In this document: piece after piece, positions 24,951 through 33,800 of the stretch
How positions within the stretch are numbered: position 1 is the stretch's first letter
How the letters are laid out: each line of letters begins with the position of its first letter
NCBI GenBank assembly: GCA_000004695.1
Contig: CM000155.2
Coordinates: 1,472,001-1,536,000 of the forward strand
Length of the DNA: 64,000 nucleotides
Source of the DNA: Dictyostelium discoideum
Taxonomy: Eukaryota
Direction of reading: 5' to 3'
Program-made: the position numbers and the translations under genes
Notes under the pieces: generated by a model
What the model saw: only the letters and a program-made list of their open reading frames with translations
Database searches by the model: none
What the model was told of the DNA's origin: nothing

Positions 24951-24953
<3 letters not shown>

Positions 24954-26022
24954 AAATCATTTTTAAATAAAAATAAAAATTCAAAAAAAATAATAATATT
25001 AGATGATAATGATTTTTCAAAATATCAACAAAGATATGATTTACAAAATCAAAATATTGAAATAGTTAGTAGTCCACTCCAAAATATAAGATCACAACAA
25101 ATTAATGATGGAGTACAAATGTCAGGATCTATTCAATCTGATTTATCAAGTTCAGATAATTTCACAAGCAGTGGTGGATTTGGAGGTGGTGGTAATAGTA
25201 GCTCAAATACAAGTAATAGAAATAGTGACAATAGTACACAACGTCCATTAATGGTTGATATTGGACTAGAATATAAATATAGATTGGCATTGGAACAGAA
25301 TCCAAATGATTTTAAAGCATTAGTTAAATGGGGTAGTTTAATATATAAGAATATTAAAAATCAAATGGGTGGTAAACATGTTGATGTTTGTCTAATGGAT
25401 TGGAATGAAGAGTTAATACCAATACCACAAAATAATAATAATCATCATAATCATAATCATCATAATAATCATACAAGTGGTAATTTCACAGGAAACATTA
25501 ATAGTAATACAACATTAAGTAATTCATTCTTTGAAACTTTAAATTCATTTAACCTAAGAGAGCCATTATTTGATGTTTGTGGAAAATATCAATCATCATT
25601 ACAATTATCTGGCGGTAGTAATTTATTAAATATTCCTTTCTCAACTTTATTAAATTATAATCTTAATGAACAATTAAATATTTTAGTTAATAATTTAAAT
25701 AATTCATCACCATCATCATCATCATCATCAATAAAAACTAAAAATACTACATCCACAACTACAACTACAACAACTACAAAAAATTTAAATGATATTTCAA
25801 ATAATATAAATAATAGTAGAGTATTAAGATCAGTATCATTACCACCTGCACCACCTCCACCACCAACAGAAGATCCAAATTCACCATGGTCAGATCCAAT
25901 ATTATGGATGAAATGGGGTGATTGTTTATTTCTTTTATGTACATATTTAGAATTACCAATGTATAGAGCAACTTGTGAAAAATATTTTAAATGTATACAG
26001 ATTTTATTTAAACAACAAGAGA

Positions 26023-26053
<31 letters not shown>

Positions 26054-28625
26054 AAATCAACAAGATAAAGAAAAATTTGAAAAACAAAATAATTATAATA
26101 TAAAATTATTAGCAATTGTATTAAGAAAATGGGGTATTACATTAAGTAGATATAGTAGAAGAATGAAAAGTCAATTTTTAATGTCAGAATGGACAAGTGA
26201 TGAAAATATTCAAGTTGAAGAATTATGGAAAGTTTTACATAGTCAATCGATTCAATCATTATTGATAAGTAATAAAATATCGCCATCATTGGTAACACAA
26301 TATCATTTGGCTACGGCATATCATCGTCATGCAATAACATTGAATCAATTTGGATGTCAATCAAAAGAGGAAATCTATGGTTTAATTACAAATTCTTGTA
26401 AAATTTATTATGAAACTTTATTGGAATCATTATCAGATACATTCTTACAGCAACTACAACTTCAACAACAACAACAACCATGGCATGATATTGAATATTA
26501 TAATAATAATGAAATATTTAATGATCAATTTAAATCTAAATCATTAGAGAATTGGGGTAGAGCATTGGATGTTCAATTATCAACCAAATTAAATGATGAA
26601 GAGGAAACCATTGAGAAAGAAGAAGAAGATTTAAATTCAGTCGATGAATATTTAACAACATTTTCAAAATCAGTGTTAAAAGGTGTTACACCATCATTGG
26701 AAGGTGTGGTTTCATTATGTTTAAATTCAAAGCAAGCACTTCAATATAAAGCAATCAATAGTGTCTCTGTTTTATGTAGATCAAGTGAAATTGTAAAATC
26801 ACCAATTTACAATGAACTCATGGATCAAATGACCAAAGTTGAATCATTCGTTTCAAAAAGAGATGATGCTGAATCATTATTATCTCAACAAAAAACTTTG
26901 AAAAGTATGCCACCAAAATTACAAGCATACGTTCGTATGAGTGGTTTAGGTGAAGAAGAAATTATGAGAAATTTTGAAATTGCTTGGAATTCAATTTATT
27001 TCCTAACAAAAGATACAATTCCAAATCAACCAATACCACCAAACTATTATAGATCAAATAAAAAAAATAAATTAAAACAAAGACAATTGAATGATAGTAA
27101 TAATCAAGATGAAAAAGAAGAACCTGAAGAAATTAAACCACCTTTACTACCTTCAATTCATCGTACTAATCAATTAAATAATAATAATAATAATAATAAT
27201 AATATAAATAATAATAATATAAATAATAATAATATAAATAATAATAAAAATGGTAATAGTGGTGGTGAAACTCCATCACCATCATCATCTTTTGTTATTA
27301 CACCTTTTACATCAAATTCACAATCAAAATTTAATACACAAAGACAATTCCTCTCAAATTCAACTTTATTTAATTTATCTAGTAGTGGTATTTTTACTAA
27401 TAATAATAATAATAATAATGGTGGTTCAACTATAACTACTACAACAACCAATAATATATCACCAACTAAAACAAATGGTTGGACTTTAACTTTACCAAGT
27501 AAAGCACCAACTAGAAGAGCAACAGTTTCATTGATTAATATAAATGATTTAATTAATCAGCAACAACAAAATCAAATAAATTCTGTATCAACATTATCAC
27601 AAAATAATATAATATTAAATAATAATAATAATTTAGATAATAAACCAATTTCAAAATATATACCAAATTCAATTATTAGAACAACAGTTAATCCACCATT
27701 ATTATCAAGATGTGATGAAACTATATTTTCAAGTGGTACACCATTACCATTATTTAGGGATAAAATTAAATTGGGTACAGGTGCATTTGGAAATGTATTT
27801 TATGCAATTAGAAAATCAGATTCAAGTCCTGTTGCAATTAAAGTTTTAATGGAACGTACTAAAAAAGATAGTCCAATCATACCTGAACTCTATATTCATA
27901 GTGCTTGTAATCATTCAAATATTGTTACCTACATTGAATCCTATCTATGTAAAGGTCATGTTTGGATCATTTTAGAGTATTGTGATGGTGGTACAGTTAG
28001 AGATTTACTTCAAGCAACTTGTACTCCTGGTAATCCAAATAATTTACAATTGTTTGAAGAGACTTTAATCGCTTATATCATCACAGAGTTATTGGAAGGT
28101 TTGGTTTATTTACGTTCAAAGGGTATCATTCATAGAGATTTAAAGAGTAGAAATATTTTGTTAACTAGAAAGGGTAAAGTAAAGATTGCCGATTTCGGTC
28201 TCGCTACAACTTGTAGTTTAGGTCGTGGTAGAACTCGTATGTGTGGTACCATGGGTAGAATCGCTCCAGAGGTAATTAGAAGAGAACCCTATGACACCCA
28301 ATCTGATATCTATAGTTTGGGTTGTTTAATCATTGAAATGGCTGAAGGTACCGTTCCCTATGGTAAAGATTCCTCTTTGAAAGCATTATTCTATACAGCA
28401 ATCCATCAATATAAATTACCAAATCCTAAAAAGTATACAAAAGAATTTGTAGATTTCCTTTATCTTTGTTTAAATCCTGACCCTTTCAAAAGACCAACAC
28501 CTGAAATGTTACTACATCATACTTTCCTAAGTGGTGCTGATAGAGGTAAATCAATATTATTAGGTCGTTTTAAAAATCAAGATACAAGAAAAAATTTACT
28601 TTTGGATAATTTTGTTGCTTTTTAA
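24951..28625 (+). CDS. Serine/threonine protein kinase with a long low-complexity N-terminal region; single exon, 1224 aa
   Basis: C-terminal kinase domain carries LGTGAFGNVFYA (Gly loop), VAIKVL, HRDLKSRNILL (catalytic loop), DFGLA and GTMGRIAPEV. The N-terminal 900 aa is Asn/Gln/Thr-rich with a PPAPPPPPTEDP proline tract. The ATG follows an A50 tract. Confidence 0.85.
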
Positions 28626-28851: not shown

Positions 28852-29412
28852 ATGGATTTTATTATATCTTTTATCAAAAATTTATTTGGTTTTTTGACAA
28901 TTAAAAAAGTTATGATTTTAGGAGTGGAGAATGTTGGTAAAACTACTTTATTGTATAATATTTACAAATTTTATTCAGAAAATATAACAACAACAACATT
29001 ATCATCATTGCCAATACCAATACCAACAAATGGATTTAATGTTGAAAGTATTGTAATTGAGCAAGTTAAATTTGATATTTGGGATATTGGTGGTAAAGAA
29101 ACTAATAGGATATGTTATAGACACTATTTAACTAGTGAAATTGATTCAATAATATTTGTATTTGATTCGAGTGATATTAATTCATTGGAAGAATCAAAGA
29201 AAGAATATCAATATTTAAAAAATCAAATTAGTTTAAAAAATGTTCCATTTTTATTAGTTGCAAATAAACAGGATTTAAAACAACAAACAATTGAAATAGA
29301 TGAAATTTTAAAAACTTATTTTGATAAATCTTCAATTAATGAAACCATTTTAATGTCTCAAAATAATAATGATGATTTAATAAAGTGTATAAATTGGATT
29401 TTTTCAAATTAA
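28852..29412 (+). CDS. Arf-like (ARL) small GTPase, divergent, 186 aa
   Basis: ILGVENVGKTTLL is the P-loop. WDIGGKE is the Arf-type switch II (WDxGGQ). VANKQDL is the NKxD motif. Arf-like N-terminal amphipathic helix. Confidence 0.7.
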   Translation: MDFIISFIKNLFGFLTIKKVMILGVENVGKTTLLYNIYKFYSENITTTTLSSLPIPIPTNGFNVESIVIEQVKFDIWDIGGKETNRICYRHYLTSEIDSIIFVFDSSDINSLEESKKEYQYLKNQISLKNVPFLLVANKQDLKQQTIEIDEILKTYFDKSSINETILMSQNNNDDLIKCINWIFSN

Positions 29413-29672: not shown

Positions 29673-30578
29673 GGTGGAGCATAAAAAAGGGATTGCAGAG
29701 GTCGGTAATGATATTTTGATTTGTCGTCTTAACCACTAGACTATTAAGGAAGTATCCATAAATTAGAATCGAACTAATGCTTACAAAGTGAATTTAATCG
29801 AAGTAACCCACCTACTCATGCCCTCAAGAAAACAATTCAATTATAATACCTTTTTTTCAACAACCAACTTTCTGATAATTTTAACAAAATAACATTTTTT
29901 TTTTTTTATTTTTTTTTATTGATATTTTATTTTGTTAATTATTTTAGAAATTGAATTTTCCTAATATCTGTATCATTGGTATTTGATAGTTTTTTTTTTT
30001 TTTTTAAAGTTTTATTTGATTAAATATAATGGTGATTTTCTGTGGGATCGATATCACCTAAAAATGATCAAATAAAAATATGGTTCTAATTCTTTAGATT
30101 ATCATTTTTTTTTCCTCAATTTTAATTATTAAACTTTTTTTTATTTGGTTTGTTTTTGGGTGTTGTATTTAATTATTGTTAATATTTATCTATTATTTTT
30201 TTAAAATTCTAAACATATATAATAATAAAAAATAAATACATTAATTTTAAAATTAATTTCTTTTGATTGACCGTTAATCAAAAGAAACAATGATTTACAT
30301 TGTAATCAATCACATAACTTGTAAACCAAAGTTTTTTAAAACAAATAAATAATAAAAAAAAAATAAATAAAAAATAAAAAAAAATAAAAATGTAAATGAA
30401 TATAAAATAATATTTTCTTTTTTAAAAAAAGGAACACCATGGATGAATTATTTTGAAGATAATATTTTTTGGAGATTTGATGTATGAACTATTTATTATT
30501 TATTATTTATTTTTATTTTTTATGTTTATTTTTTTTTTAATGTTAAAAACAAAAAAATTAAAATTCAACAAGAACAAT

Positions 30579-32973
30579 TTATTTCTTAGAACTAATACAT
30601 GATTTACATATTATTGTTTGGCCATTACTAGCTAACTGTTTAAATTTATCTTTGTCGATTTGAAAATCTTTTTTACATTTTGGACAGTTTAGTTTTTTAT
30701 CATTGCTTTTTTGATCATTTTGTTTGTTGGATTTACATGATTTACATATTATTGTTTGACCATTTTTAGCTAAATCTTTAAATTTATCTTTGTTGATTTG
30801 GAAATCATTTTTACATGTTGGACAGTTTAGTTTTTTATCACTGCTTTTTGGATCATTTTGTTTAGCTAATTTATCAGTTACATTTGAATTTGAATCGACT
30901 TGTTTATTGGATTTACATGATTTACATATTATTGTTTGACCATTTTTTGCTAAATCTTTAAATTTATCTTTATTCATATGGAAATCTTTTTTACATGTTG
31001 GACAGTTTAGTTTTTTGTCACTGCTGTCTGGATCATTTTGTTTGTTGGATTTACATGATTTGCATATTATTGTTTGACCATTTTTTGCTAAATCTCTAAA
31101 TTTATCTTTATTGATATGGAAATCATTTTTACATGTTGGACAGTTTAGTTTTTTATCACTGCTCTTTGGATCATTTTGTTTAGCTAATTTATCAGTTACA
31201 TTTGAATTTGAATTCTTTGAAGTATGACATGATTTACATTTTATTAGTTGACCAAGTTTCTTTAGTTCTTCATATTTGTCTTTGTTAAAATCAAAATTAT
31301 TTTTACAAGATGGACACTTTAGTGTTTTTAAACTACCACCATTTAAATTGGCTTGTTGTTGGTTTGAGTCTTTAGTTGGATTTGAATCTTGTTTTTGTTG
31401 AGCTGAATCGACGTATTGTTTTTTAGAATTATCATTTTTAATTTTTGATTCATCAATGGTGATGTTTTTCTTTTTTGTTTTTAATGACTCTTCTTTATTT
31501 AATTTATCACAGATCTCTCTAATGGTTCTAATCATTTCATCGGCCGATTTTCTGGCATCGAATGAAGTTGAGTTTTTAGCTTCCATTTCCATTTGATTTA
31601 AAGTAATTTGAAGTTCATCAACTAAATTAAAACCACTACAAATTTTTTTCAATTCTTTACAAGATTTTACAATATCATCGGTCATTTTATTCAAAGTGGC
31701 ACTGGCTAATTTCTTTGCTGAATCAAGATTGAGAATTTTTCCTGAAAATTCGGAAGAGAGTTCAGAGCTTTTTAAAAACTTTTCCTTCATATCTGTGAGT
31801 TCTTGCTCAACTGTCTTATTAACTTTAACCATTGTTTTTCTTCCATGATAATGAACATTGTAAAGGCACTTTGAAGGACAAATTTTGCAATTATTGGTTC
31901 CACTCATTGCTACACAACCTATGAATGCATTATCCCCTTTTGTTGATAGCTCTTCTAAGCCACCTTTTAAATGATAAAATTTATTAATAATTATTTAAAA
32001 AATAAATTAAATTATAAAATTACTTACATTTATTATGACAAACATGGTCACAAGTACTACATAGGGTACTATGATATGGTGCATCTTTTAATTCATACTT
32101 TTCAATTGTATTTTTTGTTGTATAATTTTTAAATGATTCTTTATCATTATTTGCCTTTTCCAATTGATGTTGATACTGAGATAAAGAATCTTGAAGCTTT
32201 TGAAGATTTCCAATATCTGTTTTTGCTTTATGAAGAATTGATTTAATGTTGTGTCTATGGGCTTTCATTTCTCCAAAATCTTTGGTTGAAACTGATGACA
32301 TCTTTGTTACACATTCAAGGATTCTATCTAAAGTTTGGAAAGAAAGTTTGAATTCAAGTTTTAATGATTCAACTGAAGTTGGGTCCCATAGTTTTGGATC
32401 AGTACTGAATGCAGTATTATTCATATGAAATACATATTCTGGATTAACATTTATTTCAATTGAATTAATATCAAAGTTTCTTGTATGGCTAAGACAGTTG
32501 GTAAACACAATGAAAACATTATTTAAAAGAGAATCAGGAATTGAACCACGGAGTCTTGTAATAACATTTTGAAGGTTAATTGTCATTCTTGGAACTGTAC
32601 CATTTACTACAATTAATAGAGCGGACAAACTTGGGCAACTTTCTGCAGCATCAATAATTTTTCCAATATTGATATCATCTTGTTTAATACCACGTGTATC
32701 TGATAAACCTGGAGTATCAATAAATACAAATTCTTTGGAGTCTTTTTTAAATGAATATTCATTACAAAGATCAGTTTGACTTTTTGTTCTATCTTTTGAA
32801 TCATTTTCACTTGACTTTACGTTTTGATTTGAATTTATAAATTTGGTGCCAATTGAAACTTTAATTTTATCTGGAATTTCTCCATTTAAAAAATAATTGG
32901 TTATTGTATTAATTAATGTAGATTTTCCACATCCAGTTTCACCAATAACAAGCAATGAAAATTTGTTTGACAT
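30579..32973 (-). CDS. AIG1/GIMAP-type P-loop GTPase fused to a coiled coil and five tandem CxxC...CxxC zinc-ribbon repeats; 2 exons (32973..32020, about 31970..30579), about 780 aa
   Basis: Exon 1 has LLVIGETGCGKSTLIN (G1), FIDTPGLSD (the AIG1-type DTPGL switch II) and LLIVVNG. It ends CSTCDHVCHNKCK at a GTAAGT donor. Exon 2 continues in frame: ...GGLEELSTKGDNAFIGCVAMSGTNNCKICPSKC. It then has five units of about 48 aa, KKLNCPTCKNDF[HQ]INKDKF[KR]DLAKNGQTIICKSCKSNKQ. These units are about 144 nt each and nearly identical at the DNA level. Confidence 0.7.
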
Positions 32974-33800
32974 TTTATTTTATATGATGTTGATGAAGAA
33001 AAGAAAAAATATTGTGAATAAAAAAAAAAAAAAATTGTTTAATAAAAAGAAAAAAAAAAAAAATTCTTCACAAAATCTTTCAAATTTTTTTTTTTTTTAA
33101 AAAATTAAGTTTTGTAATTTTGTGCCCCATCTAAATCTTTAACAAACCAAAAAAAAAAAAAAAAAAAAATTTATTATTGGGTGAAATATTTTTTAATGGG
33201 TTTCTTTGGGACTCCAATGAAAAGTATAACAGTAATTAAAAAAATGCATAAATTTTTTTTTATTTTTTTTTTTCCTTTTGAGATTTTGTTTTTCACTAAC
33301 CAGATTTTAAATTTTTATCTGTAAAAAAAAAAAAAAAATGAAAAAAAAAAAATATCCAATTAATTTTTTCTTAAAAAAAAAAAAAAATTATATCCAATAA
33401 ATTTTTTCTAATAAAAAAAAAAAATAAAGATCAATTTTAAATAATAATTCAATTATAAAAAAAAAAAAAAATTTAATACTTTTTAGTATTAGTAACCTAT
33501 CAAACAGCTTTCTTAAAAATCATAATAGAATTTTGGTTGTCATTGATAGATTTTAAAATTTCTTCATATGTTGTTGAAGTGTTTTTGGATGCATTTTGTA
33601 CTGAATACTTCAAAGTTCCCCATAAAATGATTGAATTGACCAATCATATATTAAACAATATTGATCTTTATTTTAAATTCTTTTTTTAATATTTGGATGG
33701 GATTAGCCCTATTATAAATAAAAAACTAATTTAATTGATAAGTAATTTAATCATTTATAATTTTTTTTTTTTTTTTTTTATACCCTGGTTGGGTTATTTT

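Follow-up and report, generated by a model that had tools for sequence, protein, structure and literature searches.

What kind of protein results when a GTPase of the AIG1/GIMAP type is joined to an array of zinc ribbons? The question is raised by a minus-strand gene in a 64,000-nucleotide stretch of Dictyostelium discoideum DNA (assembly GCA_000004695.1, contig CM000155.2, positions 1,472,001 to 1,536,000; hereafter the window), for which a preliminary description had proposed such a fusion. In plants, vertebrates, molluscs and corals, GTPases of the GIMAP/AIG1 group have been connected with immunity, and Dictyostelium is a genetically tractable phagocyte and a model for cell-autonomous defence. 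We found that the locus is the annotated gene DDB_G0292334, which very probably encodes a soluble protein of four parts: a G domain, a helical stalk, a β-hairpin carrying a Cys/His knob, and a tail of zinc ribbons. The first three parts define an uncharacterised family, which we consider a more interesting object than the ribbon array. Taken as a whole, with the architecture and the proposed mechanism blended into one figure, our reading has a probability of roughly 55%.

The gene is already annotated in D. discoideum AX4 with two exons on the minus strand (Table 1). Two minus-strand open reading frames (ORFs), 32973..32020 and 31907..30579, are bridged by a 64-nucleotide (nt) intron, and joining the exons 32973..32028 and 31963..30579 gives a 2331-nt reading frame whose 776-amino-acid (aa) product matches XP_629715.1 (EAL61291.1, UniProt Q54DC6) at 100% of residues. 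The junction codon, C316, completes the motif C312-H-x-x-C316-G-L, which is carried by 87–97% of 75 homologues and is rebuilt by splicing, whereas unspliced read-through of exon 1 runs into a stop after ...CK. Restoration of this conserved motif supports the splice independently of the database match, and an intron is implied at the same position in the orthologue of strain ACTFIR. The splicing of the two ORFs, which had been proposed with an estimate of 32020/31970, is thus borne out to within a few bases of the actual intron, 32027..31964. The novelty of the architecture held up in part. Our literature search returned nothing relevant naming DDB_G0292334, Q54DC6, DUF8206 or a fusion of AIG1 with zinc ribbons, but public databases contain both the gene and its “AIG1-type G domain” label: RefSeq lists a “hypothetical protein DDB_G0292334 [D. 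discoideum AX4]” and UniRef an “AIG1-type G domain-containing protein”.

Among Pfam models, AIG1 (PF04548) fitted the G domain best, at 36.0 bits over aa 7–159 (cut-off 27, E = 6e-9). The generic model MMR_HSR1 (PF01926) also exceeded its gathering score (29.5 versus 21.9 bits) and ranked below AIG1. Septin (PF00735) gave no match in this Pfam scan of the protein and Roc stayed far under threshold in it, so that no other GTPase family, septin and MMR_HSR1 included, scored better. Because matches of the whole protein in the PDB were dominated by the P-loop, we restricted a profile to aa 60–226 and searched the PDB with this P-loop-free segment. The top match was GIMAP7 (E = 2.4e-4), and the next, Nog1, was 70-fold weaker. 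The alignment with GIMAP7 takes in the switch I Thr, then DTPGLxDT, then the conserved box, and reaches the G4 Thr, with the GIMAP7 segment at switch I and switch II reading VTKNC...VVDTPGLFDT. For the conserved box between G3 and G4, the family region around SLSALLIVVNGTVPRMT (aa 114–131) aligns with GPHAIVLVLQ--LGRYT of GIMAP7 in the profile alignment, a match of hydrophobic pattern plus R-x-T in which residue identity is low. AIG1 as the best Pfam model and GIMAP7 as the top match of the P-loop-free profile together support assignment to the AIG1/GIMAP/Toc group, in agreement with the earlier proposal of an AIG1-type rather than a Ras or Roc domain.

The predicted catalytic and nucleotide-binding motifs are all intact except G4. 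T67, D86, P88 and G89 are invariant in the 75 homologues, G11–T19 is conserved at 90% or more, and the AIG1 hallmark of switch II that had been pointed out is present within FVFIDTPGL. The G5/IAN region lies beyond the reach of both the Pfam AIG1 match and the GIMAP7 alignment. In that part the family carries a conserved F-[HY]-M-N-N-x-A-F-S, with N186, A188 and F189 at 90% or more, which may resemble the FNN[RK]A motif of GIMAPs.

Following the G domain, the preliminary description had expected a coiled coil. A helical extension is indeed present, but it takes the form of a conserved stalk with a β-hairpin and a Cys/His knob. We modelled aa 1–497 with AlphaFold2 from the alignment of 75 homologues, at a mean predicted local distance difference test (pLDDT) score of 84.8, and the two models obtained scored 84–85. 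In both predicted structures, the stalk consists of helices at 231–280, 372–423, 429–445 and 450–478, from which a long β-hairpin (285–305 and 353–370, 20 residues per strand) juts out. The knob at its tip combines 8 Cys with 3–4 His. The candidate ligands are H301, C305, C308, C312, H313, C316, C332, C341, C344, C348, H353 and H355, and these 12 columns are conserved at 73–97% in the 75 homologues. The knob very probably binds metal, its candidate ligands sufficing for about three Zn ions. It had no match in the copy of Pfam that we searched, and the stalk with its hairpin and knob had no specific counterpart among solved structures.

The model loses confidence at the end of the stalk, with pLDDT below 50 from aa 479 on, where a linker leads into the ribbon tail. 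The five four-Cys units that had been described are present, of the form CPxC...CKSC, as CxxC-x22-CxxC motifs at aa 532–561, 590–619, 636–665, 696–725 and 742–771, and PF25206 (DUF7836) matched five stretches above its cut-off (44.4 versus 26.7 bits), which supports reading them as zinc ribbons. The proposed repeat length of about 144 nt was incorrect: the units differ in length (Table 1), and Tandem Repeats Finder detected periodicities of 138 and 180 nt and a super-period of 318 nt, at scores (459–1075) far beyond chance. Likewise, nucleotide identity above 90% applies to units 2–4, which are 94–95% identical to one another over a 108-nt core, but not to unit 5 (79–83% to units 2–4) or unit 1 (70–72% to every other unit). 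The tail has a net charge of +30 and an isoelectric point of 9.5. No hydrophobic or transmembrane segment occurs in the protein, whose maximum KD19 value of 1.4 falls within the G domain. The array alone (aa 525–776), searched against a collection of 5.8 billion proteins, gave 0 matches and did not even recover itself, which is likely due to composition or repeat filtering.

Table 1. Features of DDB_G0292334 and their positions in the window and in the protein.
Feature	Position in window	Strand	Residues	Remarks
Whole gene DDB_G0292334	30579..32973	minus		776 codons + stop; spliced translation equals XP_629715.1 / Q54DC6
Exon 1	32028..32973	minus	1–315 + base 1 of codon 316	946 nt; donor GTAAGT at 32027
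Intron	31964..32027	minus		64 nt, GTAAGT...AAAAG, phase 1; splits the Cys/His knob at C316
Exon 2	30579..31963	minus		1385 nt including the stop codon 30579–30581
AIG1/GIMAP/Toc-like G domain	32299..32973	minus	1–225	
P-loop	32917–32943	minus	11–19	GETGCGKST
Switch II	32704–32718	minus	inside FVFIDTPGL, 82–90	DTPGL
Atypical G4		minus	157–160	FTNC; inside the G domain
Family-specific helical stalk	31470..32298 (including intron)	minus	226–480	
Predicted metal-binding knob, Cys/His-rich	31845..32073 (including intron)	minus	301–355	Tip of the hairpin
Low-complexity linker	31323..31469	minus	481–529	K/N/Q/D-rich; not conserved beyond close relatives
Ribbon unit 1	31149..31322	minus	530–587	174 nt; CPSC...CKSC; divergent, long linker
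Ribbon unit 2	31011..31148	minus	588–633	138 nt; CPTC...CKSC; 95% identical to units 3 and 4 (nt)
Ribbon unit 3	30831..31010	minus	634–693	180 nt; linker is a copy of the unit 1 linker (NSNSNVTDKLAKQNDPKSSDKK)
Ribbon unit 4	30693..30830	minus	694–739	138 nt
Ribbon unit 5	30582..30692	minus	740–776	111 nt; CPKC...CKSC; C-terminal

A zinc-ribbon tail behind a G domain could also belong to a ribosome- or RNA-associated GTPase of the Era/EngB type, with the ribbons binding rRNA or tRNA in the manner of Trm112-like or ribosomal-protein ribbons. This explanation is very unlikely, given that AIG1 outscores the generic MMR_HSR1 model and that GIMAP7, not Nog1, leads once the P-loop is removed. The protein also lacks a KH domain or any other Era/EngB accessory domain, Trm112 scored 27 bits against a cut-off of 77, and the family is not universal, unlike ribosome-biogenesis factors.

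The tail is fast-evolving. There are 5 ribbon units each in D. discoideum AX4, ACTFIR and ACTFIW, 6 and 5 in two “D. cf. discoideum” assemblies, and 3 and 4 in two D. purpureum paralogues, so that repeat number, which it had been suggested should be compared across strains and species, varies from 3 to 6. Linker lengths vary by strain as well, and the long linker of unit 3 in AX4 is missing there in ACTFIR and ACTFIW. The internal units of one lineage share residues specific to it (KDLAKNGQTI in AX4, KELAKNGQTV in ACTFIY, YKELKIKHG.NIQC in D. purpureum), whereas the first and last units are stable positional orthologues, unit 1 in all discoideum-group strains. Every ribbon Cys ligand is retained in every unit compared. 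Variable copy number and lineage-specific residues common to internal units point to unequal crossing-over or gene conversion, by which the tail very probably evolves while its internal units are homogenised, in support of the recent expansion or concerted evolution that had been anticipated. Among 208 sampled members of the family, two or more C-terminal CxxC…CxxC units occur in Dictyostelium (discoideum and purpureum groups) and Acytostelium only, and the two ribbons of Acytostelium are of the PF13451 type, unlike the Dictyostelium units. The Polysphondylium orthologue ends in a low-complexity tail and that of Tieghemostelium has no tail. By these comparisons the array is an add-on specific to one lineage, restricted to dictyostelids among the members sampled.

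The portion before the tail has a much wider distribution. Homologues of aa 1–480 share 27–64% identity with it (E down to 1e-259) and come from other dictyostelids, Pelomyxa, Arcella, the tardigrade Hypsibius, the ciliate Blepharisma, the bdelloid rotifers Rotaria, Adineta and Didymodactylos, and many metagenome contigs; Aedes albopictus has several paralogues, some of them on one contig. Searched against 1.84 billion representatives, a profile of the stalk and knob matched 1778 clusters at E ≤ 1e-3, 744 at E ≤ 1e-10 and 203 at E ≤ 1e-30. A P-loop lies 200–400 aa upstream of the knob in all sampled members with a sufficiently long N-terminal sequence, and the family has in common the knob pattern CxxCx3CHx2C...CxxCx3C...HxH and the motif CSGFNLVxEL. 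PF26633 (DUF8206) appears in the precomputed annotations of P0009, P0032, P0043, P0044 and other members but not in those of the D. discoideum orthologue P0001. With the same high confidence as for the architecture, we regard the combination of G domain, stalk and knob as an ancient, widespread and uncharacterised module whose parts co-occur in the sampled members, which belong to Amoebozoa, to animals prone to horizontal gene transfer or to expansion, to a ciliate and to giant-virus-like contigs. The family looks eukaryotic and giant-viral.

Several members depart from the simple arrangement. P0084 (1614 aa) and P0085 (1348 aa) have three Cys-knob motifs (at about 83, 388 and 944) and a single P-loop (at about 650), and HMMER found 3 and 4 stretches, respectively, that match the stalk profile. 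Three knobs with one P-loop imply that the stalk module can undergo duplication on its own, with no second G domain. In P0099 (1513 aa), seven partial matches to the hairpin-knob portion of the profile were present. Six AIG1-like paralogues, one with DUF8206, stand in tandem on a 30-kb metagenome contig (L005, 3739–15423), and two paralogues likewise lie side by side at L013.

Two of the metagenome homologues lie in compact contigs whose gene content is of the giant-virus type. One (P0039, L001 6556–8223) is accompanied by Pox_VLTF3, TFIIS, RNase HII and a Ras/Arf-like GTPase, and the other (P0054, L012 1961–3856) by seryl-tRNA synthetase, an Fpg glycosylase, PARP and ankyrin, which suggests that Nucleocytoviricota carry the family. 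The top structural matches in BFVD were giant-virus proteins labelled “AIG1 family” or “50S ribosome-binding GTPase”, although weak (TM 0.27–0.35). When IMG/VR viral contigs were scanned with the alignment of the family, 122 pattern matches came up, and tblastn confirmed 0 of them. Because the IMG/VR scan gave none, the link to giant viruses is drawn from the two metagenome contexts and the weak BFVD matches. The matches listed for 185,579 prokaryotic species genomes contain one full-length relative (P0028), in the metagenome-assembled genome of a ‘Spirosomataceae bacterium’ (L007/L009, CBDFKQ010000021.1). The genes of this contig are sparse and very large (1518, 689 and 814 aa) and lie kilobases apart, and because this spacing is eukaryote-like, the contig is probably a misbinned eukaryotic one. 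We thus found no convincing bacterial member of the family among the listed matches from these genomes.

These contexts also bear on the idea that the gene is a relic acquired from a giant virus or by another horizontal route, drifting with little or no host function, its repeats being products of neutral slippage. Homologues on giant-virus-like contigs, the giant-virus AIG1-like or ‘50S ribosome-binding’ GTPases at the top of the BFVD results and the varying number of repeats would fit such an origin. Nevertheless, we find it hardly credible, because the ORF is intact and all its motifs are kept in AX4 and two further D. discoideum strains, in both ‘cf. discoideum’ strains, in the pair of D. 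purpureum paralogues, and in Polysphondylium, Acytostelium and Tieghemostelium. Intact reading frames and motifs across dictyostelids argue for vertical inheritance under purifying selection. The retention of Cys ligands in every ribbon and of synteny with the neighbouring Arf-like and kinase genes speaks against drift as well.

How might the four parts work together? GIMAP, septin and Toc GTPases undergo nucleotide-dependent dimerisation of the G domain and form scaffolds, according to Schwefel et al. 2010, cited in PMC3417536. By analogy, the G domain of DDB_G0292334 would dimerise or oligomerise when nucleotide-bound, and the stalks would be bundled as a scaffold. Through the knob and the basic, multivalent array of ribbons, the assembly would then be anchored or concentrated on a polyanion, most likely nucleic acid, with an acidic membrane as the alternative. 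The preliminary description had suggested nucleic acid or ubiquitin as a possible ligand of the ribbons. Rather than housekeeping, we favour cell-autonomous defence or host-parasite conflict as the role of the protein, because of the patchy distribution, the tandem expansions, the giant-virus copies and the fast-evolving tail; it is family distribution and dynamics only that suggest defence. This mechanism as a whole, from nucleotide-dependent assembly through polyanion targeting to defence or conflict, is put forward tentatively, at well under even odds. A bolder form of it, which we judge decidedly unlikely, would see in the module an unrecognised class of GIMAP-related immune-type GTPases, distributed over eukaryotes and giant viruses and exchanged among amoebae, their giant viruses and animals prone to horizontal gene transfer, in which the metal knob (Zn or Fe-S) on the hairpin senses or effects and the Dictyostelium protein, with its basic ribbon array, acts as a cytosolic defence GTPase triggered by nucleic acid.

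The acidic-membrane alternative for the target leads to a different account of the whole protein, as a housekeeping scaffold in which tail and knob dock a GIMAP2- or Toc-like oligomer on acidic phospholipid, for example that of endosomes, lipid droplets or the contractile vacuole. Several features would suit a scaffold of this kind: the families of atToc33 and GIMAP7 act at membranes (Schwefel et al. 2010, cited in PMC3417536), the charge of the tail is strongly positive, and the gene, a single-copy one, has been conserved in Dictyostelia as well as in other Amoebozoa. On the other hand, the protein has no transmembrane or amphipathic anchor, and Polysphondylium, Tieghemostelium and Acytostelium either lack the tail or have a different one, so the core function cannot depend on it. 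A core trafficking factor is also poorly matched by the patchy distribution, the giant-virus copies and the tandem expansions. We consider the housekeeping scaffold unlikely. Were it true, the finding would reduce to an annotated hypothetical protein with an improved domain description.

A number of observations weigh against our main reading. The AIG1 model matches over positions 3–125 of 212 only, the first 60%. G4 reads F-T-N-C-L, with a family consensus of T-N-[C/S/A]-x that has no conserved acidic residue: among the 75 homologues T158 is found in 74 and N159 in 54, position 160 is C, S or A, and position 161 is variable (R/S/K/T/L), while the GIMAP7 counterpart is FTRKEEL. Without this acidic residue, GTP specificity is not assured. 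The AIG1 domain has been defined by G1–G4, G5/IAN and the conserved box (PMC7053062), and since one of these motifs fails, namely G4, whose fourth residue should be acidic (T-[RH]-x-[D/E]; classically NKxD), we call DDB_G0292334 AIG1-like and not GIMAP. The AIG1/GIMAP label of the preliminary description accordingly stands for the AIG1 branch but not for a canonical GIMAP. With respect to the metal sites, the knob could hold an Fe-S cluster instead of Zn, as its CxxCx3C spacings are compatible with one, and the MJ0042-type model PF13717 (Zn_ribbon_4) stayed just below threshold on the ribbons (27.5 versus 30.3 bits, four stretches). As to defence, D. discoideum has a single copy and no expansion, and bacterial defence-system models gave no meaningful match, the matches from PADLOC and PHROGs being at the level of the P-loop or sub-significant. 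Amino-acid divergence between ACTFIR and AX4 is 3.6% for the G domain and 5.4% for the stalk, compared with 1.3% for the neighbouring kinase and 3.2% for the Arf-like neighbour; since it resembles that of the latter, although above that of the kinase, no clear sign of diversifying selection emerges. Finally, our literature search gave no functional, expression or localisation data for the gene.

The window has a G+C content of 24.8%, as expected for Dictyostelium, and the flanks of the gene (30338–30544 and 32999–33465) consist of long A/T homopolymers and short-period AT-rich tandem repeats, as is typical for intergenic DNA in Dictyostelium. Immediately downstream, on the plus strand, are an Arf-family small GTPase ORF of 186 aa (28852–29412; Pfam Arf, E = 1.8e-32) and then a protein of 1224 aa that carries a protein kinase domain at its C-terminal end (24951–28625), and both neighbours are syntenic in strains ACTFIR and ACTFIY. 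Upstream, ACTFIR has an ORF of the long-terminal-repeat retrotransposon type (aspartic protease, RVT_1, integrase; L010 5399–8976) about 1 kb from the orthologue, and ACTFIY has a DDE_Tnp_4 transposase ORF instead. Since the alignment between the window and L010 ends near 33353, the upstream region of AX4 differs from that of ACTFIR.

As a single-copy, distant relative of GIMAPs in Dictyostelium, DDB_G0292334 offers an easy entry to a family of hundreds of clusters, and its ribbon array provides a clean, small case of concerted evolution inside a coding repeat. AIG1-like genes in D. discoideum have been mentioned in passing (PMC12845241). AIG/GIMAP genes in general are patchily distributed, with expansion, loss and many domain fusions, including 19 architectures of the AIG1 domain within one snail, and the family described here shows similar dynamics in its patchy distribution, tandem expansions and proneness to fusion (PMC7053062).

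The nearest solved folds to the G domain are atToc33 and GIMAP7. With the GIMAP/AIG1 (IAN) proteins, including human GIMAP7 (PDB 3zjc), GIMAP2 and GIMAP4, DDB_G0292334 shares the P-loop, the switch I Thr in S/T-x-T-x2-C, DTPGLxDT, a hydrophobic conserved box followed by R-x-T, the G4 Thr and a helical extension after the G domain. It differs from them in G4, which is T-N-C-x rather than T-[RH]-x-[DE], in a stalk that is much longer and bears a β-hairpin and a Cys/His knob unknown in GIMAPs, and in ending with a zinc-ribbon array where GIMAPs have a transmembrane or hydrophobic anchor. The chloroplast import GTPases Toc33, Toc34 and Toc159 (PDB 2j3e) reach an identity of only 17%; they lack the stalk, knob and ribbons, whereas DDB_G0292334 lacks a transmembrane anchor and a plastid context. 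The ribbons share with the MJ0042-type PF13717 and with PF25206 the motif h-x-C-P-x-C-x3-F-x-h...G-x2-h-x-C-x2-C of about 30 residues and four Cys. Neither of these domains has a defined ligand, and the Dictyostelium ribbons are distinguished by being tandem, homogenised, highly basic and fused to a GTPase. The uncharacterised members of the family itself are true homologues, which share the G domain, stalk, knob and CSGFNLVxEL over aa 1–480 but have no CPxC...CxxC array. At the C terminus they have other extensions or none, and in the proteins of the bdelloid rotifers, of about 1100 aa, the tail is unannotated.

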